NCBI GenBank assembly: GCA_963588055.1 | Contig: CAVAGB010000007.1 | Span: forward strand, 7,699 to 71,698 | Reading direction: 5' to 3' | From: Erysipelotrichaceae bacterium | GTDB lineage: Bacteria > Bacillota_I > Bacilli_A > RFN20 > CAG-826 | Length of the DNA stretch: 64,000 nucleotides | In this document: piece after piece, positions 7,077-63,338 of the stretch | Position numbering within the stretch: position 1 is the first letter of the stretch | Layout: each line of letters begins with the position of its first letter | Notes under the pieces: model-generated | The model's database searches: none | The model's input: only the letters and a program-made list of their open reading frames with translations | What the model was told of the DNA's origin: nothing | Made by a program: the position numbers and the translations under genes

Positions 7077-7819
7077 AGTTCCCCTCCCAATATGGCGGAC
7101 AGCGCCTGCCCGATGTCATCCCGCAGAACATAGTCGAAACGGTCGTCAAGAGGGGTCGGCTCGGCGTTGATGAGCACGCTTTTGCCGCCTGAGAAATATC
7201 CGGGCAGCATCGCGGCCGGCTGGACTCTGAGGCTAGTGCCCCCCACTATCAGAAGATTGGCGAACCTCGTCGCGTTCATCGCCCCAAGGAAGGCGTCTTC
7301 GGGCAAGGCCTCCTCATAGAGGACGACGTCGGGCTTGATGACGCCCCCGCAGGAGCATCTAGGGACGCCATGGTGCTTGATCTCATCCAAGGCGTAGCGC
7401 TTCCCGCAAGTTGGGCAGGTGTAGCTCGCGGTGCTCCCATGGATCTCAAGCACGCGCTTCGAGCCCGCTTTTTGATGCAGGCCGTCGATGTTTTGGGTGA
7501 TGATCGTGAGCTTGTTGGGGTGGCGTTTCTCGAAATCCGCCAAAGCGAGGTGGGCGAGGTTGGGCTTCGCGGAGAAGGAAACCATCGTCGACCAGTAGAA
7601 ATCGTAGAAGGTCTCCGGGTCTTCCTCGAAGAAAGAAAGGGAGAGCATCTCCTCGTATGGGCGGCCGTATTTCGAGCGCACGTTATAAAGCCCTTCGGGC
7701 GAGCGGAAATCCGGTATCCCCGAGGCCGTGGAGACCCCCGCGCCGCCCAAAAAGACGATGCGTTTGGCGTCTTTGACGAGTTTTCTAAGCTCCCCGAGCG
7801 TCTCTTCGTCCATGCTCAT
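7073..7819 (-). CDS. cobB: NAD-dependent protein deacylase (sirtuin)
   Basis: GAGVSTASGIPDFR motif, Zn-ribbon cysteines CPTCG...CSCGG, and the GTSLRVQPAA motif. Confidence 0.85.
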   Translation of the reverse strand: MSMDEETLGELRKLVKDAKRIVFLGGAGVSTASGIPDFRSPEGLYNVRSKYGRPYEEMLSLSFFEEDPETFYDFYWSTMVSFSAKPNLAHLALADFEKRHPNKLTIITQNIDGLHQKAGSKRVLEIHGSTASYTCPTCGKRYALDEIKHHGVPRCSCGGVIKPDVVLYEEALPEDAFLGAMNATRFANLLIVGGTSLRVQPAAMLPGYFSGGKSVLINAEPTPLDDRFDYVLRDDIGQALSAILGGEL

Positions 7820-9143: not shown

Positions 9144-9986
9144 ATGAGAACCATATCCAGCCAAACGCTCACCGGGGAAAGAGCGGCCTTCAAAGCCAAA
9201 GACACCCTGTTTTCCTCTTGCCGTTTCGAAGACGGGGAATCCCCGATCAAAGAGGCGAGGAACATCGAGGTCGTCTCCTCCTCTTTCGCCTACAAGTACC
9301 CTCTTTGGTATGGAAAGAACCTCCATGTGAAGGATTCGACCTGCGAGGAAAGCGAGCGCGCGGGGATCTGGTATTCGAAGGACGTCCGCTTCGAGGATTG
9401 CATCATCGACGGGCCGAAGAACTTCCGGAAATGCCTGGGTCTGGCCTTGAGGCGTTGCAGCTTCTCCGACGCTCAGGAAACGCTATGGTGGAACGAGGAT
9501 GTCGAACTCGATCAGATAGAGGTCAAAAACGGCGCCTATTTCGGGATGGGCAGCAAACGTATCCAGACAAATAGGCTGGTTTTGCAGGGAAATTACGCCT
9601 TCGACGGATGTGAGGACGCTCTCATTGAGAACTCGGATCTGGATACGAAGGACGCCTTCTGGAACTGTAAAAGGGTCACGCTTAGGAACTGCCGGGTCAA
9701 AGGGGAATACTTCGGATGGAATTCCGAGGACGTCACCCTGATCAACTGCCGCATCGAATCCCATCAAGGCTTCTGCTACATGAAGAACATCAAGCTCATC
9801 GGCTGCGAGGTGGTTAACAGCGACCTCACCTTCGAATACTGCTCAAACATCGACGCGGAGATCACCACGGACCTCGATTCCGTGAAGAACCCCCTATCGG
9901 GCAAGATCAAAGCCAGATCCATCGGCAGCATCATCCTCGATGACGATGAAGTCGACCATAGCCTCACGGAGATCATCTGCCAATGA
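9144..9986 (+). CDS. DUF3737-family protein (beta-helix-like)
   Basis: 280-aa protein with repeated beta-helix-like motifs (N..E.V.L.NC); the start is the ATG at 9144; ATGA-coupled to the downstream patB, a pairing seen recurrently. Confidence 0.65.
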   Translation: MRTISSQTLTGERAAFKAKDTLFSSCRFEDGESPIKEARNIEVVSSSFAYKYPLWYGKNLHVKDSTCEESERAGIWYSKDVRFEDCIIDGPKNFRKCLGLALRRCSFSDAQETLWWNEDVELDQIEVKNGAYFGMGSKRIQTNRLVLQGNYAFDGCEDALIENSDLDTKDAFWNCKRVTLRNCRVKGEYFGWNSEDVTLINCRIESHQGFCYMKNIKLIGCEVVNSDLTFEYCSNIDAEITTDLDSVKNPLSGKIKARSIGSIILDDDEVDHSLTEIICQ

Positions 9987-25787: not shown

Positions 25788-27281
25788 TCAATCCTCATCG
25801 GAATCCGAGACTTCGGATCCGTTGACGATGTCGGCGATCCAGTCGTGCTTGACGACCTCGCCTTGGGTCAGGCCGTTCTTGCTCATGACGTCGGCGATGA
25901 GCTGCTTCGCGCGGCGCATGGAGAGATCGCTCTTGACCTTGAAGACGAGCGGGATGTCCTTATAGGTGCCTTTGTGGCCGGCATCTTGGATCGGGAGGGT
26001 GGAATTGGCGTAGTCCTTCGGGTCGAGGGCCATGTAGAGCTTCAATCCTTTGCCCGCGATGCACATCTTGATGAAGGTGACCTTATGGAGGCGGAAGGTG
26101 TCGCCGGAATTGGAGACGCGGCTCTTCACGCCGTAGCTCATGATCTCGCTCTTTAGCTCGTTATAGCGATTCTTGAGGTCGTCATCGAGATCGGCCATCC
26201 TGGTCTGGAAGGGGATGCGGACGATCTTCTCATGGGGAGGGAGGCTCGGGTTCACCTGGCCAACGGCCCTTTTGCCATCGCCGTCCTCATCCTCGTCTTC
26301 GGAAGGGACGACCACAGCAACGGGCGCGGGCTCCTCTTTGACGGGAGCAGGCTCAGGCTTAGGCTCTTCCTTCTTAGGCGCGGGGGCAGGAGCGGGTTCA
26401 ATGGCTTTGGGTTCTTCCACGACGGGCTCGGGCTTCTTCTCCGGAGCAACAGGGGCGCTATCTTTGCGCTCAAGCGGCTCGCGGACGATGATGGTGACCG
26501 GGGCGGCGGGCTTATCGGAGGTCGTTTTGACGTTCTTCAGCTCGTCGGCGATGATCTGGCGGATATCCTCGGCGGAAAGCGGCGCGGGGGCAGGAGCGGG
26601 AGCGGGCTTAGGCTCTTCCTCTTTCTTGCGGGCGAGCTCTTCGGCGATGATCTGGCGGATCTGGTCGGCGGTCAAGGTGTTCTTCCTTTCCTCTTCCGCG
26701 GCCTTGCGTGCAGCCTCCTCTTCGGCGGCTTTGCGCGCGGCTTCCTCTTCCGCCGCTTTACGGGCGGCCTCGGCGGCTTCGGCGCGGGCGGCCTCGAGTT
26801 CCCTCTGATGGCGGGCCTCGAGCTCCTTGCGCTCATTCTCCTCGGCTATCCTTTTCTCTTCGCTGGCTCTGCGGGCGGCCTCTTTCTCATCGGCGGCCTT
26901 CTTGTCGGCGGCGAGTTCCTCGCGGATGATGGCGCGGATGTCGTCGGCGGAGAGCTCCGGCTCGGGGACGGGCTCGATGACGATGTCGTCGTCGATCTTG
27001 CCTTCCTCAGGCTCCTCGGGCAGATAGGACTTCAATTCGTCGGAGATGATGGCGCGGATGTCGTCGGCGGTGAGGGCGGGGGCTTTCTCTTCGTGCTTCT
27101 CCTCTTCGGCGGCCGGCGCGGGGACGGTCACGATGAGAGGTTGAGCGGAGGCTTCCTTCTTCTGGGAGTCGAGCTCCTCCTTGATGATCTTGCGGATGTC
27201 CTCCGCTTTGAGGCTCTTCTCGCCGGTCACGTTCTCCTTGATCTCGGAGAGGGGGACGGAAGAGGAACGCTTGTCCGCCAT
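25788..27281 (-). CDS. Repeat protein: about six (A/S)(E/D)DIRxIIxEEL repeats, an Ala/Glu/Arg-rich coiled segment, a Pro-rich linker and a C-terminal ~170-aa globular domain
   Basis: Direct reading of the translation; probably the C-terminal portion of the upstream membrane gene (see findings). Confidence 0.55.
   Translation of the reverse strand: MADKRSSSVPLSEIKENVTGEKSLKAEDIRKIIKEELDSQKKEASAQPLIVTVPAPAAEEEKHEEKAPALTADDIRAIISDELKSYLPEEPEEGKIDDDIVIEPVPEPELSADDIRAIIREELAADKKAADEKEAARRASEEKRIAEENERKELEARHQRELEAARAEAAEAARKAAEEEAARKAAEEEAARKAAEEERKNTLTADQIRQIIAEELARKKEEEPKPAPAPAPAPLSAEDIRQIIADELKNVKTTSDKPAAPVTIIVREPLERKDSAPVAPEKKPEPVVEEPKAIEPAPAPAPKKEEPKPEPAPVKEEPAPVAVVVPSEDEDEDGDGKRAVGQVNPSLPPHEKIVRIPFQTRMADLDDDLKNRYNELKSEIMSYGVKSRVSNSGDTFRLHKVTFIKMCIAGKGLKLYMALDPKDYANSTLPIQDAGHKGTYKDIPLVFKVKSDLSMRRAKQLIADVMSKNGLTQGEVVKHDWIADIVNGSEVSDSDED
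26695..26790. repeat. Imperfect in-frame tandem DNA repeats (~30-33 nt) encoding (AAEEEAARKAA)n
   Basis: Visible repetition of gcggcttcctcttccgccgc / gcggcctcctcttcggcggc units. Confidence 0.6.
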
Positions 27282-45769: not shown

Positions 45770-46414
45770 ATGATCCTCCGCATGAATCCAACCGTCAAAA
45801 AAAGAATCTCGATCCTCTTGCTGCTTGGAGCGATCCTCGGTGAGATGATGGGCTTAAGCATCGCCTTCCTCACGGAAGATAAGCCCTACCTTTTCTTCAC
45901 CAACATGGGGAACTCCTTCTACCTGCTCTGCGCGATCGTGGTCTTGATTTGCCAATGCCATGCGCTGAAGAAAGGGAAGGAACTCGCCAAATGGGCTTCC
46001 CTCCTCCATTATGTGGGAACGGTGACTGAGACGCTGATCTTCCTGATCGTCGTCCTCTACCTCGTCTGGTTCAGCGGGCCGATGATGCTTTACTCCGGAA
46101 GCTTCGCCTTCTTGCACCTCCTTTGCCCTTTGCTGGCCATCGCCAACCATTTCTTCTTCCTGGGCAAACCTTCTTATATATATAAGGAAGGGGCTCTCGG
46201 CTTCTTGCCCCCTCTTCTCTACGCCTGCGCGATCATCCCCCTCTGCGCCTGCAAGGCGATCGAGGCCCCCTATCCTTTCCTTGACTTCGCCTCCAACCCA
46301 CCTTGGCTCACTCTCATCTACGCCATCGGCTCGATCATCGTCCTTTCTCTCATATGCTTCCTCTTGCTCCGCTTCGGAAAAAAGACGCAAAACCTCACCG
46401 AAAAGGACCGCTAA
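45770..46414 (+). CDS. Hypothetical polytopic membrane protein (214 aa)
   Basis: Six hydrophobic segments and Cys-rich loops. Confidence 0.5.
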   Translation: MILRMNPTVKKRISILLLLGAILGEMMGLSIAFLTEDKPYLFFTNMGNSFYLLCAIVVLICQCHALKKGKELAKWASLLHYVGTVTETLIFLIVVLYLVWFSGPMMLYSGSFAFLHLLCPLLAIANHFFFLGKPSYIYKEGALGFLPPLLYACAIIPLCACKAIEAPYPFLDFASNPPWLTLIYAIGSIIVLSLICFLLLRFGKKTQNLTEKDR

Positions 46415-46454
46415 CCTTGCAGAAGCCTAACGAAAAGGGGCCGAAGCCCCTTTT

Positions 46455-49400
46455 TCATTTGACTCGCGTATCCGTGCGGATGTAGCTCCGGTCGCGGCTT
46501 TTCACGATGCCGATCGTCGTATCGACGTAAGGCATCAGGATCTTCGCGTTGTTGCTCGGCAAGCCGATGATCAGCTGAATGGAAAGATCGTTGAAATAGG
46601 ACATCGTCGCCGAGATGCGCGAGGCGTCCATTTTGTTGAAGGCCTCGTCGAGGATGACGATGCAGCCAGCCTCTTTGTCGAAGCTCCCCTCGTGGACGAT
46701 CTGGTCGAAGGAGGCGGCGATGATGACGTAGAAAGGAGTCTGGGTCTCCCCGCCTGACTTGCCCCTGGAGATCTTGGAGAAGAAAGAGATCTCCCCTTGC
46801 CGGTTCGTGATCTGGATGTCGTAGTTCATGAACATGCGGTAATCGGTGAAAAGGCGGAGCAGCTTCTCCTGTTTCTCATCCCCCGGCGAGGCGGTCAAAC
46901 GGTTGAAGAGATCCTTCATGAGGGAGGAGTCGTTCGAATCAAGGGAATCGAGGAAAAGATCCTTCGAGGAGATATCCTCTTTCGAGGTGAAGATGTCGTA
47001 ATAGGGACCGAAAATCGGGTCTTTGCTGCGCGCGACGACGAATTGGTAGACCTCCCCATCGTTCCCGAAAGGCTTGTCGGCGAGGACTTTGTTCAGTTTG
47101 CGGATGTTGGCTTTCTCATCGAGGATGTGCTTGCGGATCTGGGCGATGTAGTTCTCCTTGAAGGCGGTCGCGCAGTCGGCCTGCGCGCGTTCGAGGTCTT
47201 TCTTGAATTGCCCTAGCTCCCGCCCGACGACCTTGCTGTATTCGTTCAGGAAATCGCCGATGTTCTCCATGCCTGGGGCGCTATCGAAGCGGAACTCGTT
47301 GATGTAGGTGGCCATCGAAGAGATAATCGCGCGCTCAAGCGAGGCGATCTGAGGGGAAAGCGAGGCGATTTGCCTGGCGATTTCGTTTGCCCCGAGCGAA
47401 GCGTTGGCCTTGCTGAATTCATCGAGCTTCTCGCGCACTTTGGGATCGACGGCTTTCTCGGAGAGTTCCTCTTCCTCGGCGCGGAGCTGCTCCTCGATTT
47501 CCCTGATCTGCCTCTCAGCGAGGTCGCTTTCGGCCTCAAGCTTGGTTTGCTTGGTCAGGGATTCGTCCCGCTCGGCCTCAAGCCTCGCCTTCTCGGAGGC
47601 GAAGTCTTCGCCGTTCCCATGCCCCCCTTCTTTGGAAACGCGTTCGAGCTCGGCTTTCTCTTTGCTGAGTTCGTTCTCCCTTTTGAGGAGGTCGGCGTAT
47701 TGACGCCAATAGTTCGGGGAATCCAAAAGCTGCTTCCTCCGCGATTCGGAGGCTTTGTTGAGCTTGGCGCGGAGCTCGGAGACGTTCCCGCTCAGCTCGT
47801 CCACCTTCTCATTGGCTTCCTGCAGGCTTTTCTGAAGGGAGGAAAGCTGAGCGGCGTAGGCGCCTTTGCCGATGTAGGGGGTGGCGTAGACCTCAGGGCG
47901 CGTCGCGCGGGCGGCTTTGTTGCGGTAGACCATGACGCTTTTGGTGATGGAGGAATCGTAGTACTTGAGATCCTGCTCGGAATCCACGCAGATGATGTCG
48001 CCCAAAACGTAGTTGACATAACGTTGGGCATCGGGGTCGTCGGTGACGACTTTGCTGGCGAGGGAATTCGGCTTGGCGTCGCGCTCGGAGAGCTTAGCGA
48101 CGTTCACGAGGCCGACGGAGTGAATGTGGTATTGGGCTTTGTTGCGCTCATAAACAGCCAAAGCGCGGTCGTAATACTCCTCTTTGACGAAGAGGTCGAA
48201 GCGCCTGGTGTTGAGGTAGCCCTCCACCGCGTTGCGCCAGCTCTCTTCCCCAGGGGCGATGTCGATGAGCTCGCAGAAAGGATGGACGTCGATGTCGTAT
48301 CCCTCTTCCTCCAAGAATGCCTGATGGATCAGCTTCATGAGGATGGAGGTGTTGTAATCGTATTGGGGGAGGCCTTTGCGCAATGCGTCGTATTTGCTTT
48401 GGAAGCCGCTTTGCTTCTGCTTGGCTTCGCTCAATTCGCCCCAGCGCAGCATCATCGCGTCGTTGAGCGACTGGCGGCGGGTCTCGAAAGCCTCATCGTA
48501 AGAAGAGAGGGCGGTCTGGAACCCTGAGAAATCCTCCGACTTGATGAAGGAGGCGAAATCCGCCTTCAAGGAAAGGGATCTGGCAAGTTCCCCTTCTTCG
48601 AGGATCGCGCGGTTGAAGCGCGAGAGGCTAGGCAAAAGGGAGTCGATCGAGCGCTTGTTCTCATCGATGGCGCGCTGGTTCTCCTCGAGGCTTTTATACC
48701 AATCCTCCCCCGAGAGGGCGAAGAGTTTGCGTTGGACCTCGTCGAGTTTGACGACGATCAATTTGCGTTTGTCCGCCTCATCCCCGATGAGGGCGGCGTT
48801 GGTCTTGATCTGAGCCTTCAAGGAAGCGATTTTCTTCTCGGAGGCGACTTTGTTCTTTTGAGCGGTCAAGGCTTGGAAAAGGGACTTTTGCAGGGTTTTT
48901 TCCTCATAGTCCGCATTCATTGACACGATGGATTCGAGCTGAGATTTCTTCTTCTCGTCGATCTCCACGTCCTTCCTGATCTCCATGTAGGAATGGATGG
49001 AGGCGCGGATGGAAGCGATGTCGACGTTATGCTCAGGGAGAAGGAAATCGAAGACGAAGTCATTGACCTCCCTGATCGGCTTGAAGGCGATGGCCTTTGG
49101 AAGGAGCTCGTAATATTTGTTGCTGGAGAGGCCAAGGGCGCGGGAGATCTGCGACTTGATCTCGCTCCTGGTCCCCTTGATCGCGAGGAAAGAGCGTTCC
49201 CCGAAGAGGGCGTTGGCCTTCTCTTGGAGGAGCTTCGCGTTGACGGCTTTCCTCTTCTCGCCATCGAGGACGAAATAGAGCTCATCGTCGATATGGCCCC
49301 CGCGGATCAGATAGAAGGACTGGTCGGCTTTGGGGGAGGCGTCGCGTATCTCAAGCGCGCAGCCGAGGATGAGGGATTGCCCATTCGGGTCCTCGAATTC

Positions 49401-49682
49401 CAAGGCGACGTGCGAGATGAGGTCGGGGTTCGGGCGGAGGCATTCTCTTCCTTCGGCGCCGATCGTCCCCCTCATGTAGGTCTCTACCGAGCGAGAGGTC
49501 TCATCGGTCGCGGCGAGGTTGAATTTGCTCGAGCCCCCCGCCAAAACGAAGTAAAGCGCGTCGAGCAAAGAGGATTTGCCGGCGCCGTTCTCCCCCGTGA
49601 CGAGGACGTTCCCGCTCACCGGGATGGTGTTGTCGTAAAAGCTTTGCCAATTGACGAGTTTGATCTTAGTCAGCTTCTGCAT
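46455..49682 (-). CDS. jetC: JetC/MksB-like SMC-family ATPase (Wadjet/MksBEF)
   Basis: N-terminal MQKLTKIKLVNWQSF with Walker A GENGAGKSS; a central coiled-coil region of about 700 aa; C-terminal signature-like GGETQ and Walker B ILDEAF. An AAGGAGG SD sits ahead of the ATG at 49682. Confidence 0.75.
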   Translation of the reverse strand: MQKLTKIKLVNWQSFYDNTIPVSGNVLVTGENGAGKSSLLDALYFVLAGGSSKFNLAATDETSRSVETYMRGTIGAEGRECLRPNPDLISHVALEFEDPNGQSLILGCALEIRDASPKADQSFYLIRGGHIDDELYFVLDGEKRKAVNAKLLQEKANALFGERSFLAIKGTRSEIKSQISRALGLSSNKYYELLPKAIAFKPIREVNDFVFDFLLPEHNVDIASIRASIHSYMEIRKDVEIDEKKKSQLESIVSMNADYEEKTLQKSLFQALTAQKNKVASEKKIASLKAQIKTNAALIGDEADKRKLIVVKLDEVQRKLFALSGEDWYKSLEENQRAIDENKRSIDSLLPSLSRFNRAILEEGELARSLSLKADFASFIKSEDFSGFQTALSSYDEAFETRRQSLNDAMMLRWGELSEAKQKQSGFQSKYDALRKGLPQYDYNTSILMKLIHQAFLEEEGYDIDVHPFCELIDIAPGEESWRNAVEGYLNTRRFDLFVKEEYYDRALAVYERNKAQYHIHSVGLVNVAKLSERDAKPNSLASKVVTDDPDAQRYVNYVLGDIICVDSEQDLKYYDSSITKSVMVYRNKAARATRPEVYATPYIGKGAYAAQLSSLQKSLQEANEKVDELSGNVSELRAKLNKASESRRKQLLDSPNYWRQYADLLKRENELSKEKAELERVSKEGGHGNGEDFASEKARLEAERDESLTKQTKLEAESDLAERQIREIEEQLRAEEEELSEKAVDPKVREKLDEFSKANASLGANEIARQIASLSPQIASLERAIISSMATYINEFRFDSAPGMENIGDFLNEYSKVVGRELGQFKKDLERAQADCATAFKENYIAQIRKHILDEKANIRKLNKVLADKPFGNDGEVYQFVVARSKDPIFGPYYDIFTSKEDISSKDLFLDSLDSNDSSLMKDLFNRLTASPGDEKQEKLLRLFTDYRMFMNYDIQITNRQGEISFFSKISRGKSGGETQTPFYVIIAASFDQIVHEGSFDKEAGCIVILDEAFNKMDASRISATMSYFNDLSIQLIIGLPSNNAKILMPYVDTTIGIVKSRDRSYIRTDTRVK

Positions 49683-50301
49683 CGTCCTTGCCTCCTTCTT
49701 TCTTTCCATAGGCCTCCAGCATCGCCGCGATCAGGTCGATGTCGCTTTGCCCCAGCACGACCAAAATGGTCGGAAGGATGATTAAGCGGGTAGAGCCTTC
49801 AAGTTTGCTGCCTTTGAAATCAACGATCTTGCTCCTCCTGAGTTTTTTTAGGGAGAGGTCATATTCAGTCATCCTCTTGAGGGGATGGAAGATGTTGGTC
49901 TGGTTCACCTTCTCCACGAGTTCGGTCAAGACGATCGCGTTGTCCTCCTGGCTCGCGGCGGTTTTCGCGTTCTCATAATATCTGAGGCGCAGAAGCAATA
50001 GCAGCACGGTCTCGAATTTGCTTAGCCTCACCCTGCTCCTCTCCTCTTCCGTGGAGATGAAGAAGAAGGCCCTTTCCTGATCGAACTCCAGTTTGTAGTC
50101 GGTCAAGGCGAAATAGGAGGAGAAGAGGGATTTCCTCTCCTGCACGAAATAGAAATCGTTCGTGTCGGTCTTCTTGCTTTTGAGGATGAAGGTCTCGTTC
50201 AGGAATTTGGAGGCCACGCGGGCGAATTCCTGCTTCTCCCCGTCGCCCATGCGCTTGTATTCTTCGCAGAATGCGTCGGCGATCTCGTTTTTGTCAGCCA
50301 T
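49666..50301 (-). CDS. jetB: JetB/MksE-like (DUF4194-type) protein
   Basis: 211-aa acidic helical protein located between jetA-like and jetC-like genes, with overlapping start/stop codons. Confidence 0.6.
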   Translation of the reverse strand: MADKNEIADAFCEEYKRMGDGEKQEFARVASKFLNETFILKSKKTDTNDFYFVQERKSLFSSYFALTDYKLEFDQERAFFFISTEEERSRVRLSKFETVLLLLLRLRYYENAKTAASQEDNAIVLTELVEKVNQTNIFHPLKRMTEYDLSLKKLRRSKIVDFKGSKLEGSTRLIILPTILVVLGQSDIDLIAAMLEAYGKKEGGKDDAEAD

Positions 50302-51697
50302 TGCGTCTCTCCTTTTTCTTCAGTTCGAATTCTTCTATCTCGTGCCCGACCCGGACGTATTTGTCCTCTTTGAAGTCGAGGCTGTAACTCAAGCCCCTAT
50401 CCTGGGAGATGAGCTGCATGAGCATGAGCAATATGAGGTCGCCCTCTTTCTCCGTGGGGATCTCCTTGGAGGACATCTTTTGGCGCTCTTCCAGAAAGGA
50501 AAGGGCGGCGTTATCGATGTTCTCCCGCGAATAGGGATCGTCCCCGAAGATGCGGTCGAGCCCGTCGGCGACCTCTTCTTGGTCGCCTTCTGGGACGGGC
50601 AATTCGATGGCGACGGGCTTCTCGCGCTGGAAGCGAGGGGAGGAAAGCGACCTGGAATCGAGGATCCCCGTCGATTCCAAAGCGATCAGCGATTCGAAAG
50701 GATAATCCTCCGGCACCTCGGCGATGGCTTTCAAGCAGTCGTTGATGCGGCCGGTGACGTCTTTGGTCGAGGTCAAAAGGAAATCCAGGCGCGCTTTCGC
50801 CGAGGAAAGGTATTTCGCGTTTTGGGCGTCGATGACATCAAGGTACTTCTCGATGGTCTCGAAGGAGGAGATGACGTAAGAGGCCTCGTCGCGGATCTGG
50901 TTCTCGATGGCCTCGTAGCGTTCTTTGGTGAGGTCCTTCACGTCCTCGACGAGGACCGAATTGGCGACCATCTCCTCCATGTGGTCGCGGAGGAGATCGC
51001 GCAGGATGGCGATGATCTGCGAGGAATAGCGGGAAGGGTTGTCCCTCATCCTGAGGTTGTTGAAAACGCGCAGGATGACCTGGTTCTGATATTTGCCCAG
51101 CAACGTGGAGAGGATCTCCTTCGGATCGAGGTCGGGGTTCTCCATGAGGGCGTCGAGGAACTCCTTGATTTCGCTAGAGAGCCTAGAGAGCGCGTTCATG
51201 AGCTCTTTGGTGAGGCGATATACCTGCTGAAGGATGGCTGTCGATTTGGAAAGGTCGAAGCTTTTCAGGGTCGAATAGATGACGTAGACGTAGCCCGTGT
51301 ACTCAAGGGGCTTCTCGGAGCGCTCAGCGAAATTGCTGAGGAACTCCATCGTCGCTTTGCCTGCGCTGGTAAAGGAGATAAGAGCGTTGTAGCCGCCAAG
51401 CGACTCCTCATTCACCCAGCCGAGATTGCGGAACTGGCGGAGCTTCAGCTGAGCCTTGTCCCTTGCGCTCCGCCTAGAGATGTCGGTCCCTTCCCCGTCG
51501 TCTTTCACCTCGCCGGAATGATCTTCGAGGTAAAGGGAGAGGGCGCTGACCGCCTCCTCTTTAGGGATAAAATCCCCATAATCGACGGATTCGGAAAGAT
51601 GGTAAAGGATGGAGAGGAGCTCGTAGTTCCCCCGCTTATCCTCCGCGGTGAGCAAGGAGAACATTTTCCCGTTGATGCTGTCGAATAGGTTGTTCAT
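50294..51697 (-). CDS. jetA: JetA/MksF-like kleisin (DUF3375-type) protein
   Basis: 467-aa helical protein; position and size match JetA; 8-nt overlap with jetB. Confidence 0.6.
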   Translation of the reverse strand: MNNLFDSINGKMFSLLTAEDKRGNYELLSILYHLSESVDYGDFIPKEEAVSALSLYLEDHSGEVKDDGEGTDISRRSARDKAQLKLRQFRNLGWVNEESLGGYNALISFTSAGKATMEFLSNFAERSEKPLEYTGYVYVIYSTLKSFDLSKSTAILQQVYRLTKELMNALSRLSSEIKEFLDALMENPDLDPKEILSTLLGKYQNQVILRVFNNLRMRDNPSRYSSQIIAILRDLLRDHMEEMVANSVLVEDVKDLTKERYEAIENQIRDEASYVISSFETIEKYLDVIDAQNAKYLSSAKARLDFLLTSTKDVTGRINDCLKAIAEVPEDYPFESLIALESTGILDSRSLSSPRFQREKPVAIELPVPEGDQEEVADGLDRIFGDDPYSRENIDNAALSFLEERQKMSSKEIPTEKEGDLILLMLMQLISQDRGLSYSLDFKEDKYVRVGHEIEEFELKKKERRNG

Positions 51698-51707
51698 GAA
51701 ACCGCTA

Positions 51708-51761
51708 AATTATGCCATAAGCAAAGGCGTCAAGCCACCTTTTCTACAAAGTAGAAAAAGG
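51708..51761 (-). promoter_or_regulatory. Intercistronic stem-loop plus a weak promoter-like element between the phoH-like gene and jetA
   Basis: CCTTTTCTAC-aaa-GTAGAAAAAGG hairpin directly after the phoH TAA stop, with no T-run. On the minus strand it is followed by TTGACG, 13 nt, then TGGCATAAT. Confidence 0.35.
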
Positions 51762-51762
51762 C

Positions 51763-52599
51763 TTACTTGCCCTTGCCCGCGCCTTTTTCCCTGCGATAGG
51801 CGACGAAGCGTTCGTCGAACTCGGCGACGAAGCCGCTGCGCATGGGCTTCTCTAAGCGCACGAACCCCACGAGCCCAGTGCTTTCCAAGATGCGGTAGGA
51901 GGTCAAAAAGGCGTTGTCCTCCTCACTTTGGTCTGGGACGTCTATCTGATTGACCGAGCCCATGAAGACCAGCTTGCAATTCCTTCCGATGCGGGTGACG
52001 AGCGTTTGGAACTCGTCCAAGTCCATGTTCTGCGCCTCGTCGACGAGGATGATGCAATCCTCGAAGCTCCTCCCGCGGAGGAACTCCGGGGCAAGAGGGA
52101 CGATGTCGCTAGGCAATCTGCGGTAAGCATAAGGCAAAGCATCCTCGCCAAAAGAGGATTGATTTGCGGCTTTAAAGGGTTTTTGCGGGGATTTCGCATC
52201 GTTTTTGCAACGCTCCATCAAGTGCTGATAGTTGTCCAAAAGAGGGCCGAGATAAGGCGCGTATTTCTCTTCCTCTCCCCCTTTAAGAAAGCCAAGCCTA
52301 TGCCCCACTTCAACGGGCTCCCGAACATAGAAAACGGTTTTGTATTTCTTCATGGAGCCTTTAGAGCGGACCAAAGAGAGAGCGGCGGCAAGGCTCGCGA
52401 AGGTCTTCCCGGTGCCCGCATCCCCGATGCAATAAACGACGGGGAGGCGGCTGGGGTCGAGCCTGATCAGGCGGATCAGTTCCCTCTGGCCTTCGTTGCT
52501 TCCGAAATCGATTCCGAAGAGATGGTAGGTAGGCGCATCGCTCATACGCTTCGCATTATAGAGGAGGGAAGAGGAAAAGAAATACCCGCGAGGAAGCAA
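51763..52599 (-). CDS. Short PhoH-like P-loop ATPase (no PIN or KH domain)
   Basis: Walker A GDAGTGKT and Walker B ILVDEAQNMD; the PhoH core spans ~260 aa; the ATG at 52545 is an alternative start. Confidence 0.75.
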   Translation of the reverse strand: MLPRGYFFSSSLLYNAKRMSDAPTYHLFGIDFGSNEGQRELIRLIRLDPSRLPVVYCIGDAGTGKTFASLAAALSLVRSKGSMKKYKTVFYVREPVEVGHRLGFLKGGEEEKYAPYLGPLLDNYQHLMERCKNDAKSPQKPFKAANQSSFGEDALPYAYRRLPSDIVPLAPEFLRGRSFEDCIILVDEAQNMDLDEFQTLVTRIGRNCKLVFMGSVNQIDVPDQSEEDNAFLTSYRILESTGLVGFVRLEKPMRSGFVAEFDERFVAYRREKGAGKGK

Positions 52600-52612: not shown

Positions 52613-54454
52613 TCACACTAGGCCATTCATCATGTCGATGACCATGAAGACGACGCCGAGGGAAGAGAAAGCAAAGGCAAGGGCGAAAAGGATGTAATCG
52701 AAAGCGGCCCTCTTCTTTTGGGGCTTCAGCAGGAAGAAAGTCAAAAACGCCTCGGCTAGCGCAAACCCAAGCAAGGCGTACCTCACCCTGTCCAAAGCGG
52801 AGAAAAGGGATGGGGTGAGGAAATAGGCGGCCCCCAAAACGGCTTTCCAAACGGCGTCGCCAAGCAATATCTTGCGCGTCAGCGCGCTCGCCCTTTCGTC
52901 GAACCCAACCCAGCAATTCAAAGTCGTCAGAACGAAAACGTACATCCCTAGCAAAGGGATCATCGCGTAGATCGAGGCGCGGTTGACGGAAATGCCGTCG
53001 AAGAGATAAACGAAGGCAAAGCCGGCAAGCAAAACGAGAATCGGGAGGATGATCCCGAAGGCGACGTAGCAGGCGAAGCGCCTCTTGCCCCAAGAAGAGA
53101 CGCGGGTGTTCTTCATCCCCCTGCCGATGGATAGCCTAGGCATCTCCCCGTTCTCCCCGATGAGGGAATGCAAAGCCAAAGAACGGCTCTTGACGATGAC
53201 TTTATGGGCTTTCGGGGAACGGAGAAGCTCCTCAAGCATCGGCAGGAAGCGGGCAAGCAAAGCATCGTTGAGATGCTCTTTGATGAAAAGAAGCGATTTG
53301 GCGAGGGCTTCCAGATCAAGCTGCTTCGGATGGGTCTTCTCCAGGGAGCGCAGAATCTCTTGGGCGCGGATCGGCGTCATGCCCAAAGCCAAAGAGGAAG
53401 AAAGGAGCTGCATCTTCCTCTCAAAATTCAATGGTTTTATGGAGAGCACGAGCAGATTGAACTGCTCTTTGCTGATGCCAGGGAGAGAGAGCAAATGGGA
53501 AAGCAAGCGGAATTCGAAATCCTCGGCGGTCTTTATTTTCCCCACGATTTCCATCGCGAAAGGAAGGAAGGCGTTGCGGTCCTTTCCCAAAGCCTCCGCC
53601 TCGCTGAAATAGAGGCGGAACTCGCTTTCGTCGTAGGCATAGCGGTAAGGGATGACGGCGATGCTTTCTTTCTTAAGAAGCGGGCGCAGGCGGAAAAGCT
53701 CCAAAGCGCGCTCATAGTCGTGCTCTTCATGGAAAGCCTTCTCGGCCTGGCGGTTGAAACACTCGGCGAAGCACTCGGCGAATCTATCCTTCTCTTTTTT
53801 GGTGGAGGGGGAACAATCCCCTTTCTCCAATGCCATTTTCCAATGGGGCAAGCTTGCAGTGAAGGTCTTGTAATCCTCTTTCTGATCCTTGCAAATCCCC
53901 GCAAAAAAGCCATAAATGAAGCCCTTTGCCTCATCTAAGAGTTCCGCTTTATGCGCATCGCCATCCGCGCCTTCAGGCAAAGCGAGGCAATTGTAATAAT
54001 GGTTTGTGATCTGAGCCTCGTTGCAGGGCGCCCCTTCCTCTAGCTGCTTGGTGATGAGCAGCGCCTCGAGCCGACAACGCAGGGACCTCTCGATTTTGGA
54101 GGCCTCTCCCTCGGAAGAGAAAGCGAACCCTTCCAACCCGACATCTATTTTCTCTTTGGAGATGGCGCTGAGCTCCTCGAAAGCCTCTTGGATGGCGCCT
54201 TTTCCCGCAAGAGCCGAGATCTTCGAAAGCGCCTCTTCCCATTTTCTGGAATAGTTCTCGAAGGAGTCGCCTACGTAATCAAAGCCCGATACCGCGGTGA
54301 TCCTTTCAGCCTCTTCCTTGAGCTTTCTTATCTCTTGCTCCTGCGCCTTCAATTCGGAAAGGGCGGCGTTCGTCTTCGGAAAGTTCAAGGATGAAAGTCC
54401 ATCTAGGCGAAGATTGCCTTCCCCGGCAGTAAAAGAGAGGCCGTTTTCCATCAT
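52613..54454 (-). CDS. Hypothetical 613-aa protein: ~450-aa helical cytoplasmic domain plus four C-terminal TM helices
   Basis: Direct reading of the translation; no catalytic motif recognised; ATGA overlap with the upstream 62-aa ORF. Confidence 0.55.
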   Translation of the reverse strand: MMENGLSFTAGEGNLRLDGLSSLNFPKTNAALSELKAQEQEIRKLKEEAERITAVSGFDYVGDSFENYSRKWEEALSKISALAGKGAIQEAFEELSAISKEKIDVGLEGFAFSSEGEASKIERSLRCRLEALLITKQLEEGAPCNEAQITNHYYNCLALPEGADGDAHKAELLDEAKGFIYGFFAGICKDQKEDYKTFTASLPHWKMALEKGDCSPSTKKEKDRFAECFAECFNRQAEKAFHEEHDYERALELFRLRPLLKKESIAVIPYRYAYDESEFRLYFSEAEALGKDRNAFLPFAMEIVGKIKTAEDFEFRLLSHLLSLPGISKEQFNLLVLSIKPLNFERKMQLLSSSLALGMTPIRAQEILRSLEKTHPKQLDLEALAKSLLFIKEHLNDALLARFLPMLEELLRSPKAHKVIVKSRSLALHSLIGENGEMPRLSIGRGMKNTRVSSWGKRRFACYVAFGIILPILVLLAGFAFVYLFDGISVNRASIYAMIPLLGMYVFVLTTLNCWVGFDERASALTRKILLGDAVWKAVLGAAYFLTPSLFSALDRVRYALLGFALAEAFLTFFLLKPQKKRAAFDYILFALAFAFSSLGVVFMVIDMMNGLV

Positions 54455-54639
54455 TCCTTCCCTCCTTTCGGAGAGAGGATCGCCCGGATATCCTCGGCAT
54501 CGTTTGCGAAGGAAGACTCAAGTTTCTTCCCTTCCTTCGCCAAAGCCTGGGCGCGCAAAGAAAGGACCTCGTAGAGGGCGAGTTCAATGGCTTGGTTCCT
54601 TTTCAGGGTTTCCTCACTCATGCGATCCTCCCATATCAA
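54451..54639 (-). CDS. Hypothetical 62-aa helical protein
   Basis: Small ORF overlapping both neighbours in an operon-like arrangement. Confidence 0.4.
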   Translation of the reverse strand: MIWEDRMSEETLKRNQAIELALYEVLSLRAQALAKEGKKLESSFANDAEDIRAILSPKGGKE

Positions 54640-54892
54640 GGCTTGTATAGGCCTTGGAAAGGGCGAGCGCGGTCTTCGAATCGGCTCCGTCCAGCGCCCT
54701 CTTCGTCTCGACTTCGAACACGGTTTTGGCGATCAGCACCTCGCGGCGGAGCACTTCAAGTTCCTTCGCCTGCTTTTGCTTTATCGCCTCTAGCCTAGCC
54801 GCCAAAGAATCATCCAATCCCGAAGCGAAGGAAGAGACGTTCCCTTGCAGGGACTCAACGCTTTCTAAAGCCATATCCTCGTTCTCCGCCAT
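54614..54892 (-). CDS. Hypothetical 92-aa coiled-coil protein
   Basis: Ala/Glu/Leu-rich heptad-like sequence (LEAIKQKQAKELEVLRREVLIAK). Confidence 0.4.
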   Translation of the reverse strand: MAENEDMALESVESLQGNVSSFASGLDDSLAARLEAIKQKQAKELEVLRREVLIAKTVFEVETKRALDGADSKTALALSKAYTSLDMGGSHE

Positions 54893-54957
54893 CGTTTTTT
54901 CCTTACCGCGATTTTGACACCAAAAGGCATTCCATTCAAGAATTGCGTGGTTTTCGC

Positions 54958-55341
54958 TTACGCCTCGTTGCCGCGATGTTCTTTCTCTCCAACCTCTTTC
55001 AGCGAGATGCTCATATCGTCATCATCGTATACGCCGGTGAGCAGCAGCAAATTGAAATAGGTCAGCAAGGAAACGGGGACAAGCGACATCCGCACATCCT
55101 CAGGGAAAGGGATGTTGCTGGAGATCAGGCCCAATACATCTCCCGCGAGCTTCTCCAAACTGGTGAAGGCCTCATCGGCCCTCCCGTTGACGCGCACATA
55201 CTCGCCAAGGAGATCGAGGAGCGAGGACTCCCCCGCTTCGCTCTTCATCAAATCTTCCACGCGCGAGCGGATCGTCGCGATCTGCTCTTCGGTGAGATAA
55301 GCCCCCTCTGGGAGCGTGCAGCTTTTGTCGTTGCAATCCAT
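54958..55341 (-). CDS. Hypothetical 127-aa acidic protein, first gene of the operon
   Basis: ORF followed by a ~140-nt upstream intergenic region. Confidence 0.4.
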   Translation of the reverse strand: MDCNDKSCTLPEGAYLTEEQIATIRSRVEDLMKSEAGESSLLDLLGEYVRVNGRADEAFTSLEKLAGDVLGLISSNIPFPEDVRMSLVPVSLLTYFNLLLLTGVYDDDDMSISLKEVGEKEHRGNEA

Positions 55342-58214: not shown

Positions 58215-58553
58215 TCAGCCGTCTATCTTCCCTAATTCCTCCCTCATTTGGGGAATCCAATGGGCCACCGTGTCGAAAACCATGGTCAGTTTCGTGCCCC
58301 CATAATCGTGGACGATTCTATTTCTCATGCCTCTGATTGCCATCCATGGGATGCCGACGTTGTCTTTTTTGAAACGTTCGGAAAGACGCCCGGCGTTTTC
58401 GCCGACTTGGATGATTCTGAACATTATGGAATCAAGCAAAAGAGGATTTCCCTCTATCTCTTCCTCGCTTTTTCCTTTCGTCTGCTCGATGATGAAATCG
58501 AGGTCGGAAAGAATCTTCGCAAGGTAATATCCATCTTCTTTTACGTTATCCAT
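58215..58553 (-). CDS. hepT: HepT-like (DUF86) RNase toxin
   Basis: RNRIVHDY (Rx4HxY) catalytic motif; 112 aa; 8-nt overlap with the upstream mntA. Confidence 0.8.
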   Translation of the reverse strand: MDNVKEDGYYLAKILSDLDFIIEQTKGKSEEEIEGNPLLLDSIMFRIIQVGENAGRLSERFKKDNVGIPWMAIRGMRNRIVHDYGGTKLTMVFDTVAHWIPQMREELGKIDG

Positions 58554-59019
58554 ATATTCTCACGCCGTCCTTCAAAATCTCTTTCGTCAGGGCGAGATTG
58601 CCTTCAAGCTGGCTGACGTCAACGAGATCGACCTTTTTATGAAGCTTCTGCCGAAGGGTCTCGGCGAGTTCGAAGAACCTCATCCCGTCAAGCGGCATGG
58701 AAATTAAAAGATCGACGTCGCTTGTCTCGTTCGCGCTTTTTTTGGCGTAAGATCCGAAAAGATAGCAATAAGACACCTCGGGGAAATCGGCGAAGACCTC
58801 GGAGCACGATCTTTTTATCCTTTCTAATGAAAGCAGCCCATGTTCCTCATCGATCAGGTTCGTTTTCAGCAGCGCATCGTAGATGAGCTTGTATTTCACT
58901 GAGGTTTCATCGATCTTCCCCGCCTCGTAATTGAGGTAGGTCCTTCTTGTGACCCCCAGAAGGCGCGCCGCCTCCTCTTGGGTTATCCCCTTTTCTGAAC
59001 GAATTTCCCTTAAAGTCAT
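58546..59019 (-). CDS. mntA: MntA-like nucleotidyltransferase antitoxin with a fused N-terminal XRE-type HTH
   Basis: HTH LTQEEAARLLGVTRRTYLNYE followed by the NTase motif GSYAKK...DVDLLI; start at the ATG at 59019 behind a GAGGAAA SD. Confidence 0.75.
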   Translation of the reverse strand: MTLREIRSEKGITQEEAARLLGVTRRTYLNYEAGKIDETSVKYKLIYDALLKTNLIDEEHGLLSLERIKRSCSEVFADFPEVSYCYLFGSYAKKSANETSDVDLLISMPLDGMRFFELAETLRQKLHKKVDLVDVSQLEGNLALTKEILKDGVRIYG

Positions 59020-59045
59020 GATGTTTCCTCGCTTCAATATTACGA

Positions 59046-59103
59046 TTTTCACATTCTTTTTCAAGATGATGTGAAATTTTTTCACATATCCATACTTAGT
59101 ATG
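59046..59103. promoter_or_regulatory. Putative operator region of the mntA-hepT operon (two palindromes)
   Basis: ATGTGAAAtttTTTCACAT (8-bp arms) and CATACTtAGTATG (perfect 13-nt palindrome), 30-80 nt upstream of mntA. Confidence 0.5.
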
Positions 59104-60659: not shown

Positions 60660-62141
60660 TCATTCCTTCTCGGGAACGGCGTTCGCTTTCTCTTTGTCCT
60701 CTTTGGAGATGTAGACGACGCAGCAGACTAGCGAAGAGGCCAGGAAGCCGACCACGGCCCCCACTCCCACGCCGATCCAAGGCGAAAGCGAGCCGGAGGT
60801 GTCGATGACGCCAGGATAGGAATAGTGCACGCTGTCGCGATAGGTGAGGCTGACGTAACGGTAAACCTCAGATCCCATGGTGGTGTCTTCCACAAGCTGC
60901 TTCTTGACCTCGGCGATGCTCTTTTTGAATGAGGCGCAGGAAGTAGCCCACGCTTTGCCATCCTCCGAGCCGTTCTTCACGGCTTCGAGCATTTGGATTT
61001 TGCCTTCGCCCGTCAAGGTGATGGTGTCGAGGTTGGCCAAGGTAACGGGGTCGGGCACGACGTAGCCAAGCGTCTTCAGTTCCTTGGTGTAGTCGTTCAT
61101 CTGCAAAGTCAATTCCAGGATCTTCGCGTTGTAGGAGGCGGCTTGGTTGGCGGCCGCGCTGTCTCCGGCAAGAACCGCTTGATTGATTTTATCCAGCCTC
61201 TCTTCGTAGATATCGATGTTTTGAAGAGTCGACTTCAAGCTCTCGATATCCGTCTCGCCAAGCTCCTTGAGGGTGTCGATGGTGCTTTGGACGTCGTCCA
61301 CGTCGTAGTTGACGTATTTTTTGGATTCCAGCTTACTGTCGAGCGCGGTGAATACCGTGCCGGCGCCCTGCTGATAGGAAAGCTCGTAGTCGGAGATGAT
61401 GGAGGCGAGGGTCTGGTCTTTGTTGCCTTTGACGACGTCAGAAGTGCTTCCGGCGGTCTTATAAAGCCCCTCCAAGGAAGACTTGATCTGGTCGTATTGC
61501 TTGGAAAGAAGAGAGATCTGATATTCGAAATCGAGATCCTCATAGACCGAGTCGGTGGGGAAGAGGCTGCTGATCGAGTAATTCTGAATCGCCGCTTCCG
61601 CCTTCGTTTTCGTCGAATCGATGAGGGCTTGGATGAATTTGGTCGCCGTGTCTTGGCTCCCGAAGCTGCTGAGCTTCCCACTTAAGGTATAGGTGATGGG
61701 GGTGGAGACGACGAATTTGTTCGTGGACGAATCCGTATACCCGTTGACCTCGATCGAGATCTCGTTGTTCTTGACGACGCTATTGACGTCGATCCCGGAG
61801 AAATCGTTGCTCGTCTCTTTGACGGCGAGCAGGTTATCCCTGGAGACGATGTCGTAGTAATTGAAGACGGCGCCGTCGACGAAAGTGCCGTTGCCATTGC
61901 CGTCTTCCGACATGGCGAGGTTATAGGAGAACTCCGACTTGAAGGTCACTTTGGAAGGGTTGTAACCGAACTGTATGAGCAAGAATCCGGCGAGCCCCAA
62001 AGCCACGGTGCTGCCCAAGACCCACCATTTGTATTTGGCGATGGATTTGCCGTATTTCGCCCAAGTCCATTTCGATGGCCTGACTTCCTCTTCGTTCTGA
62101 ATGACAAGCACCTGACGATTGTCGTTGTTTTTCTCGTCCAT
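60660..62141 (-). CDS. Wzz/polysaccharide co-polymerase (PCP)-like chain-length determinant
   Basis: N-terminal TM (residues ~40-60), a large periplasmic coiled domain, and a C-terminal TM before a short basic tail. Confidence 0.55.
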   Translation of the reverse strand: MDEKNNDNRQVLVIQNEEEVRPSKWTWAKYGKSIAKYKWWVLGSTVALGLAGFLLIQFGYNPSKVTFKSEFSYNLAMSEDGNGNGTFVDGAVFNYYDIVSRDNLLAVKETSNDFSGIDVNSVVKNNEISIEVNGYTDSSTNKFVVSTPITYTLSGKLSSFGSQDTATKFIQALIDSTKTKAEAAIQNYSISSLFPTDSVYEDLDFEYQISLLSKQYDQIKSSLEGLYKTAGSTSDVVKGNKDQTLASIISDYELSYQQGAGTVFTALDSKLESKKYVNYDVDDVQSTIDTLKELGETDIESLKSTLQNIDIYEERLDKINQAVLAGDSAAANQAASYNAKILELTLQMNDYTKELKTLGYVVPDPVTLANLDTITLTGEGKIQMLEAVKNGSEDGKAWATSCASFKKSIAEVKKQLVEDTTMGSEVYRYVSLTYRDSVHYSYPGVIDTSGSLSPWIGVGVGAVVGFLASSLVCCVVYISKEDKEKANAVPEKE

Positions 62142-62324: not shown

Positions 62325-63338
62325 TCAGCGAGGATCGGCCGATTGAAGGTCATGGATGGATAACGTTCGTAGTTTTTTCCACGTGGGCTTCATTCCGTCT
62401 TCGTTAAAGATGGGCAGGCCCATTCCCTTGAGGACGCCATCCAAACCGATTGGAGAAAGCTCCAAGCCTTTCTTCAGAAGGGCGATTTCGCTTTCTAAAC
62501 CATCGAGGAAATCCAAGAAATCATCTTCGGGCAGCATATACTTGAGGCAGATGACGATGGAGAAGAAATCCCTTTTCCCGCAGGCGTAATAAAGCCCTGC
62601 CTTCGGTATTCCTAGCAGACGGTGGAGGGAGGTATCGCAGATCTGTTTCGTGTAGTCCTTCAAGCGAAAACGAATGAGGGAGTTGCCGTGTGCGCAGAGA
62701 TTGCGCCAGACATTGAGGGAGGACACCATCGATTGAAGCGATCGGGGCGAAAGAGAGTAATACTTTCTGGAGATGCTATTGGCGACGTTTGAGTTCACAT
62801 TTGCGTAGAACTTCCTGAGCGTGCCGAAATCAAGCACATTCACCAAAGCCCACAAAGGGACTTGCCCGCATCCGTCGACGAGGAAATGCCTGACCATGTC
62901 GTTCTTCCAGGCGTAACTTTCGATGAGATCCTCCAAAAAGGAAACGAATTCGCTCGCGTAGCGGGCGTCGTTTTCCCCATTGGCGTTGTAAGTGCTCAGG
63001 TTCAAGTAATCAAAGGGACCGTATGCCTTGCAGAATTCGTAAGCAAGATGGGTCTTCAGATGCCCCTCGATCTCGAGAAGATATTTGAAAAGAAGGATCC
63101 GCAGCGAAGCATCGAACTCATAGAGGCATACAAGATCGTTGAAACGGACGCCCTTTTTGTAGCGTTCTTCCGAAGACCCTTCCAAGATATAGTCTTCGTA
63201 AGCGATGACTACATTGAAGTAGCTATTGTTGAGCAGGAACGATTTCGCGCGATCCTTGTCGCCGATGACCATGCCGCGAGATTTCAGAATCTTAACCTGC
63301 TCATCGACGCTTGAAAATCTATAGGTCCCCATATTCAA
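62325..63338 (-). CDS. Abi_2-family abortive-infection protein (AbiD/AbiF-like)
   Basis: Conserved blocks YEFDASLRILLFKYL and NVWRNLCAHGNSL, typical of Abi_2. Confidence 0.75.
   Translation of the reverse strand: MNMGTYRFSSVDEQVKILKSRGMVIGDKDRAKSFLLNNSYFNVVIAYEDYILEGSSEERYKKGVRFNDLVCLYEFDASLRILLFKYLLEIEGHLKTHLAYEFCKAYGPFDYLNLSTYNANGENDARYASEFVSFLEDLIESYAWKNDMVRHFLVDGCGQVPLWALVNVLDFGTLRKFYANVNSNVANSISRKYYSLSPRSLQSMVSSLNVWRNLCAHGNSLIRFRLKDYTKQICDTSLHRLLGIPKAGLYYACGKRDFFSIVICLKYMLPEDDFLDFLDGLESEIALLKKGLELSPIGLDGVLKGMGLPIFNEDGMKPTWKKLRTLSIHDLQSADPR

Follow-up and report, generated by a model that had tools for sequence, protein, structure and literature searches.

A jetABC operon without jetD in gut Bacilli of the order RFN20 and its possible domestication from a type I Wadjet system

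What is a Wadjet-type operon for when the gene encoding its nuclease is not beside it? The question is raised by a three-gene operon, jetA-jetB-jetC, that lies on the minus strand of a 64-kb stretch of DNA (positions 7,699 to 71,698 of contig CAVAGB010000007.1, assembly GCA_963588055.1; the whole stretch is referred to here as the window) from an Erysipelotrichaceae bacterium. JetABC of Escherichia coli is an ATP-driven loop-extruding sensor (10.1101/2023.11.03.565488). A preliminary description of the window, made from its letters, left three alternatives for the operon: a nuclease-less complex of condensin type, a Wadjet remnant, or a system whose effector is supplied by the genes upstream. 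The explanation that we favour, and on balance think probable, is that the operon encodes a domesticated, nuclease-free and MksBEF-like JetABC loop extruder that derives from a type I Wadjet system and has become chromosomally fixed in gut Bacilli with small genomes. The arrangement is one that is already known or predicted, and the locus adds a new example of it.

The jetABC operon and the search for jetD

The first gene of the operon, jetA (50294-51697), encodes a kleisin-like protein of 467 amino acids (aa) that belongs to the type I Wadjet JetA family, matching Pfam PF18982 (JetA) with an E-value of 3.6e-73 over profile positions 12-434 of 434 and PADLOC JetA1 over its full length (E 3.2e-72). 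The 211-aa product of jetB (49666-50301), a gene with its own Shine-Dalgarno sequence AAAGGAGAG, is KITE/MukE-like and is matched by DUF4194 (E 1.5e-18), MksE (E 2.4e-8) and PADLOC JetB1 (E 2.5e-39). The third protein, JetC (46455-49682), is an ABC ATPase like those of SMC (structural maintenance of chromosomes) complexes; it matches PADLOC JetC1 (E 1.6e-243, profile positions 1-1084 of 1097) as well as Pfam AAA_29 and SbcC_Walker_B. E. coli JetC (PDB 8as8) was found by phmmer to align end to end with the JetC of the window (E 1.7e-12), and profiles of JetA and JetB returned no match among PDB sequences. The ATPase motifs of JetC, namely Walker A (GENGAGKSS), the signature (KSGGETQ) and Walker B (IVILDEAF), are present and conserved and are near-identical to those of relatives linked to JetD. 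By sequence the three open reading frames (ORFs) are thus assigned without ambiguity as intact type I Wadjet JetA, JetB and JetC.

The longest jetC ORF (46455-49709) would encode 1084 aa. Since a Shine-Dalgarno sequence, AGAAGGAGG, precedes Met10 (MQKLTKIKL, coordinate 49682) and a conspecific assembly annotates a product of 1075 aa, this methionine is likely to be the true start. A 99% identical conspecific of the window JetA is found in GCA_963620315.1. There is an overlap of 8 nt between the reading frames of jetA and jetB and one of 17 nt between those of jetB and jetC, an arrangement suggestive of translational coupling of the three genes. The GC content of jetABC is that of the surrounding DNA. 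The preliminary description had placed the three ORFs at exactly these coordinates, where they match JetA1, JetB1 and JetC1 in full length, and the JetC start, the Walker A motif and the C-terminal GGETQ...ILDEAF that it gave are all upheld by the start context and the motifs. Of the profiles it had proposed, DUF4194 holds for JetB and an SbcC-type profile (SbcC_Walker_B) for JetC; DUF3375 does not match JetA, for which PF18982/DUF5716 takes its place, so that both smaller proteins are supported as JetA and JetB by strong profile matches.

The operon has a well-defined 3' end. A gap of 40 nt lies between the stop codon of jetC (46455-46457) and that of mem214 (45770-46414), a convergent gene for a 214-aa multi-pass membrane protein with a weak match to the Pr6Pr family. 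The gap is filled by a hairpin with the form of a bidirectional intrinsic terminator (46433-46454: AAAA, GGGGC-TTCG-GCCCC, TTTT) that follows the jetC stop directly, and no trace of a fourth gene was found between jetC and the convergent gene. The predicted terminator closes the operon, and the gap leaves no room for a fourth gene.

A search for JetD, the nuclease of PF09983/DUF2220 that combines aCAP and Toprim domains, was made by tblastn with the JetD proteins of three related loci (L005, L019 and L031). A hidden Markov model (HMM) built from the same three sequences was also run on every six-frame ORF with a length of 40 aa or more. Together the window and 32 fetched loci provided 506 kb for the search. 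Both methods agreed in finding JetD only in the three source loci, in each of which (these being the JetD-bearing relatives examined) jetD lies directly 3' of jetC. No JetD was found in the window by tblastn, HMM or Pfam, and none was found by tblastn or HMM within approximately 10 kb of the operon in relatives without JetD. Nor was a Toprim or JetD domain detected by Pfam among the approximately 30 largest other ORFs of the window, which include TrkH, an aminotransferase, PfkB, GGDEF, CNNM, CTP synthase, GluRS, adenosine deaminase, BacA, Abi_2 and a HepT/MNT pair. The absence of a jetD beside the operon and the convergent membrane-protein gene within 40 nt of jetC, both reported in the preliminary description, are therefore borne out.

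Inheritance, selection and loss of jetD

Homologues of JetA that are 81-90% identical to that of the window were found in 10 species-representative genomes, including a metagenome-assembled genome (MAG) of Candidatus Enteromonas sp. and 'Bacillales bacterium UBA1624'. Candidatus Enteromonas corresponds to GTDB genus UBA733 (order RFN20, family CAG-826), and one species description gives a genome of approximately 1.2 Mb and 57% GC (PMC8035907). The JetD-less jetABC is found at an unchanged chromosomal position in 16 or more related loci from gut MAGs (Candidatus Enteromonas, order RFN20), surrounded in the relatives by housekeeping genes. Wherever the contig extends far enough, the gene order common to the loci of 16 relatives is a four-gene cluster ending in the gene for a 613-aa protein (X613), then a PhoH-like or MazG-like gene, jetABC, the convergent membrane-protein gene and a GNAT gene. 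In an exhaustive HMMER search the clade of the window fell into a single cluster at 50% identity, and relatives beyond it were no more than 38% identical; a metagenome scan contributed four further loci. The nearest relative outside the clade, L030 (JetA 38% and JetC 43% identical), is also without JetD and shares both flanks with the window clade: Fer4/Pyr_redox (44-50%), HAD (35-46%), X634 (approximately 24%) and a downstream P-type ATPase (67-71%). Vertical inheritance of jetABC at a fixed chromosomal site in the RFN20 clade is favoured by these comparisons.

The position of the JetD-less proteins in a neighbour-joining tree of JetA bears on how they came to be without the nuclease. The window clade and L030 are monophyletic (bootstrap 0.965), their sister is a lineage containing the JetD-bearing L019, and both lineages are nested among further JetD-bearing systems (L005, L031). 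This nesting of the JetD-less clade among JetD-bearing systems shows that JetD was lost, in a single event at the base of the RFN20 clade. A second jetABC without JetD lies in L032 (7001-12268). The JetC proteins of this locus and of the JetD-bearing L019 share 71% identity; downstream of jetC, L032 carries an LPG-synthase-like gene and then recX. This appears to represent a second, independent loss in the sister lineage, and since L032 too is without JetD, nuclease loss would be recurrent in this part of the family. L019, which has JetD, and L032, which lacks it, constitute a naturally occurring matched pair.

The extent of selection on the operon was estimated from nonsynonymous (dN) and synonymous (dS) divergence, calculated pairwise by the method of Nei and Gojobori against seven relatives (six at genus level, and L004). 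In the six genus-level comparisons dN was 0.07-0.14 for jetA, jetB and jetC and dS was saturated (above 1), giving a dN/dS of approximately 0.04-0.13 for the three genes and of 0.04-0.10 for jetA alone; for L004, the most distant of the seven, dN was 0.30-0.36 and dS was not estimable. Within the genus JetABC (82-89% amino-acid identity) is more conserved than each neighbouring gene compared, including GNAT (63-84%), mem214 (54-73%) and X613 (41-69%), with the exception of UGDH, which is similar (about 84%). By this evidence jetABC is under strong purifying selection. Genes for defence usually evolve fast and have a patchy distribution, and the slow evolution of jetABC together with its fixed synteny is atypical of such genes.

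These results bear directly on the proposal that the operon is a Wadjet remnant, decaying after deletion of jetD. One defining component is indeed absent, as that proposal would have it, but in none of the genomes examined is any of the three ORFs truncated, the catalytic motifs are intact, dN/dS lies between 0.04 and 0.13 and the operon is kept down to a JetA identity of 38%. As purifying selection acts on full-length, intact ORFs, this reading can be regarded as effectively refuted. The alternative of a nuclease-less complex of condensin type is the one favoured by the fixed chromosomal site, the vertical inheritance, the purifying selection and the absence of JetD across a deep clade.

A more serious alternative is that JetABC is part of a working anti-plasmid Wadjet system that recruits its nuclease, JetD or an analogue, in trans from a gene elsewhere in the genome. 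This alternative and several other observations weigh against domestication. The search for JetD covered 64 kb of a genome of approximately 1.2 Mb, and related loci, so that a jetD or another nuclease could act in trans, and by profile JetABC is still closest to the type I systems of defence. The surfaces to which a nuclease might bind also deserve attention. In E. coli, JetD docks through its aCAP domain on the JetC larynx (F919) and cleaves residual DNA, with possible extra density contributed by the N-terminal helix of JetB (10.1101/2023.11.03.565488). Neither the JetC nor the JetB region implicated in docking is visibly degraded here: the N-terminal region of JetB is kept relative to JetD-linked homologues, and a D-L-F motif is found at or next to the position of E. 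coli F919 in JetD-less and in most JetD-bearing homologues. The mapping of F919 is weak, with an identity of approximately 20% and an offset of one residue, and DLI stands at this place in one JetD-bearing relative. Because of the weak alignment and of this exception, the apparent retention of the putative JetD-contact elements is uninformative rather than contrary. Conservation of synteny at such divergence could, moreover, partly reflect slow genome rearrangement and not selection on position, and all members of the clade are uncultured MAGs. Set against a nuclease in trans are the location of jetD directly after jetC in all JetD-bearing relatives examined, the lack of JetD in the 506 kb outside L005, L019 and L031, the terminator with which the operon ends, and a synteny and rate of evolution that are atypical of defence genes. 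A nuclease supplied in trans is consequently considered unlikely.

The putative promoter, the upstream genes and other features of the window

Conserved elements upstream of jetA came from a comparative alignment of 11 related loci (10 at genus level, and L004); a generic scan for promoters and terminators gave no enrichment relative to shuffles. An extended -10-like box, TGGCATAAT, lies on the minus strand at 51709-51717, 11 nt upstream of the jetA ATG, and its core (G-C-ATAAT) is kept in the 10 genus-level upstream regions; L004, with a JetA 67% identical, differs. No Shine-Dalgarno sequence precedes jetA. The PhoH-like gene upstream likewise has a TATAAT box (52555-52560) 9-11 nt before its ATG and is also without a Shine-Dalgarno sequence. 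With -10-like boxes 9-11 nt before the ATG and no Shine-Dalgarno, it is suggested that the mRNAs of both jetA and the PhoH-like gene are leaderless or near-leaderless in this organism.

A perfect palindrome, TTTCTAC-N3-GTAGAAA (51741-51757), overlaps the -35 region of the putative jetA promoter. It occurs once in the window (0.02 copies would be expected by chance), and all 16 genus-level loci (the window's relatives L001-L003, L009-L018, L020, L021 and L023) have it at the same place, approximately 45-59 nt before jetA. Its position is the same whether the gene upstream is PhoH-like or a MazG-like gene on the opposite strand, and it was not found upstream of jetA in the more distant L004 and L030. 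From their conservation we infer that TGGCATAAT and the palindrome are the operon's own putative promoter and a candidate operator for a dimeric regulator. A regulator bound to the palindrome over the -35 region would then control the expression of jetABC.

The genes upstream are of interest because the preliminary description had raised them as a possible source of the effector. In its fuller form this explanation holds that the effector is the PhoH-like ATPase, X613 with its three small-gene partners, or both, and it draws on the location of the PhoH-like and X613 genes on the same strand immediately upstream of jetABC. The only domain of the PhoH-like protein (51763-52545, same strand as jetABC, 260 aa from its likely start) is an ATPase domain of Walker type, and no nuclease domain was found. 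Its gene is missing in one subclade (L001-L003, L015, L017 and L018), where the opposite-strand MazG-like gene stands instead. In five of these loci (L001-L003, L017 and L018) a gene for a MazG-like pyrophosphohydrolase was seen on the minus strand at about 9531-9986, with the jetA promoter elements unchanged. The ATPase belongs to a broad family of proteins of approximately 260 aa in MAGs of Bacilli (162 matches), and its orthologues (57-67% identical) occurred in unrelated contexts without JetABC in all three look-ups made. As a partner of JetABC it was rejected, being absent from one subclade and having orthologues widespread elsewhere; by this comparison the protein is a syntenic neighbour and not a component of the module.

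The gene for X613 (52613-54454, minus strand) is the last of a compact four-gene operon (52613-55341) in which the starts overlap; the three small ORFs that precede it on the minus strand encode 127 aa (54958-55341), 92 aa (54614-54892) and about 56-62 aa (54451-54639). Homologues of X613 were found only in the JetD-less RFN20 clade and the cluster lies upstream of jetABC in every member of that clade, including L030, which would fit an accessory or effector role. The co-occurrence is explained equally well by vertical co-inheritance as by a functional link. No family match to X613 was found in Pfam, NCBIfam or PADLOC. An AlphaFold2 model (pLDDT 81) predicts an all-alpha solenoid with four C-terminal transmembrane helices and no beta-strands, and a Foldseek search of the PDB with this model gave nothing significant, the best matches being ARM/HEAT-like repeats (E 0.02). 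X613 was rejected as a cryptic nuclease or JetD analogue owing to its predicted all-alpha fold and the lack of a family or fold match. Further points against an upstream effector are that X613 evolves 3-5 times faster than JetABC, that other genes can intervene between X613 and jetA, that jetA has conserved promoter-like elements of its own and that, by the gene list of L032, the 7 kb upstream of its jetA contain no gene for X613. Taken with the loss of the PhoH-like gene in one subclade and the lack of a nuclease-like fold in the model of the 613-aa protein, these points disfavour the explanation, which we regard as very improbable.

Several other features of the window were observed. At 58215-59085 on the minus strand lie two overlapping genes, one for a HepT-like RNase toxin (PF01934, E 9e-17) and one for a nucleotidyltransferase antitoxin of MNT type with an N-terminal helix-turn-helix; the pair constitutes a type VII toxin-antitoxin system about 6.5 kb from jetA. 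Closer to the end of the window an Abi_2 abortive-infection-like protein (PF07751, E 7e-40; 62325-63338, minus strand) adjoins a 493-aa protein without a Pfam match (60660-62141, minus strand), and the two may form a small defence patch. A 497-aa ORF, also without a Pfam match, lies at 25788-27281 (minus strand) in a 26-28 kb bin whose GC content is 0.62, compared with about 0.54. The 56-58 kb bin, which holds a UDP-glucose dehydrogenase gene and an epimerase-like gene, is GC-rich as well (0.64).

Known systems and a proposed role for JetABC

The system that most resembles the window operon in sequence is type I Wadjet, as represented by the JET nuclease of E. coli GF4-3 (PDB 8as8/8bfn) and JetABCD of Pseudomonas aeruginosa PA14 (PDB 8dk2). 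The A-B-C gene order and the overlapping frames are the same and JetA (PF18982), JetB (DUF4194) and JetC match type I profiles over their full length, with the nearest JetD-bearing relatives 30-40% identical to the proteins of the window. The operon differs from type I Wadjet in having no JetD or Toprim gene next to it or in the window, in its fixed syntenic site among housekeeping genes, as opposed to a variable island, and in its slow evolution. MksBEF of P. aeruginosa has the same nuclease-free architecture of three genes for kleisin, KITE and SMC proteins, and JetB of the window scores 34.9 bits with Pfam MksE, above the cutoff of 27. In contrast to MksBEF, JetA affiliates with type I Wadjet and has no DUF3375 or MukF match, and the host belongs to the Bacilli lineage RFN20. 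MukBEF of Enterobacteria is likewise an SMC-kleisin-KITE complex without a nuclease and is thought to be a domesticated relative of Wadjet; JetC has a weak match to the MukB N-terminus (24.9 bits against a cutoff of 23), but JetA and JetB have no match to MukF or MukE and the relationship is far more distant. It is the working hypothesis of the field that both MukBEF and MksBEF arose when a Wadjet system of plasmid defence lost its nuclease. The operon of the window, which would be MksBEF-type in its working and is type I Wadjet JetABC by sequence, fits such a scenario of nuclease loss.

If the operon does encode a domesticated loop extruder, then the kleisin JetA and a KITE dimer of JetB would bridge JetC dimers that load on DNA and, by analogy with what has been shown for E. 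coli JetABC, the loaded complex would extrude loops with ATP. With no nuclease to recruit, the outcome would be compaction or organisation of DNA, as in MksBEF or MukBEF, and not plasmid cleavage. A different outcome is conceivable in which JetABC acts on plasmids or episomes independently of any nuclease, still sensing them, extruding them fully and silencing, compacting or mis-segregating them without cutting, as might be compared with the action of Smc5/6 on episomes. JetABC without JetD has been shown to bind plasmid DNA and to reach a stalled, U-shaped DNA-holding state (10.1101/2023.11.03.565488), and the complex of the window is otherwise unchanged. Against this, mutation of the Toprim glutamate of JetD abolishes plasmid restriction in Bacillus subtilis, and in that JetD-mutant assay JetABC alone gave no protection (10.1101/2022.10.04.510915). 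Such nuclease-independent control is therefore thought quite unlikely.

As the JetD subunit, one of the defining features of a Wadjet defence system, is absent from the operon and from the window, the operon should not be filed as one, and annotators of defence systems should not count a JetABC that lacks JetD as a functional Wadjet. The value of the locus and its relatives is in providing matched natural systems with and without JetD in which the passage from Wadjet to condensin could be tested; the finding itself is expected under current thinking. MukBEF replaces Smc-ScpAB in the organisms that possess it. By extension it may be speculated, as a bold proposal with the odds well against it, that a JetABC domesticated early serves as the core chromosome-organising SMC complex of the RFN20 Bacilli with their genomes of approximately 1.2 Mb, possibly in place of Smc-ScpAB, that X613 and its small partners are perhaps lineage-specific accessory factors and that L019 and L032 catch the transition. 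If true, early domestication in RFN20 would parallel, on the Gram-positive side, the origin proposed for MukBEF.

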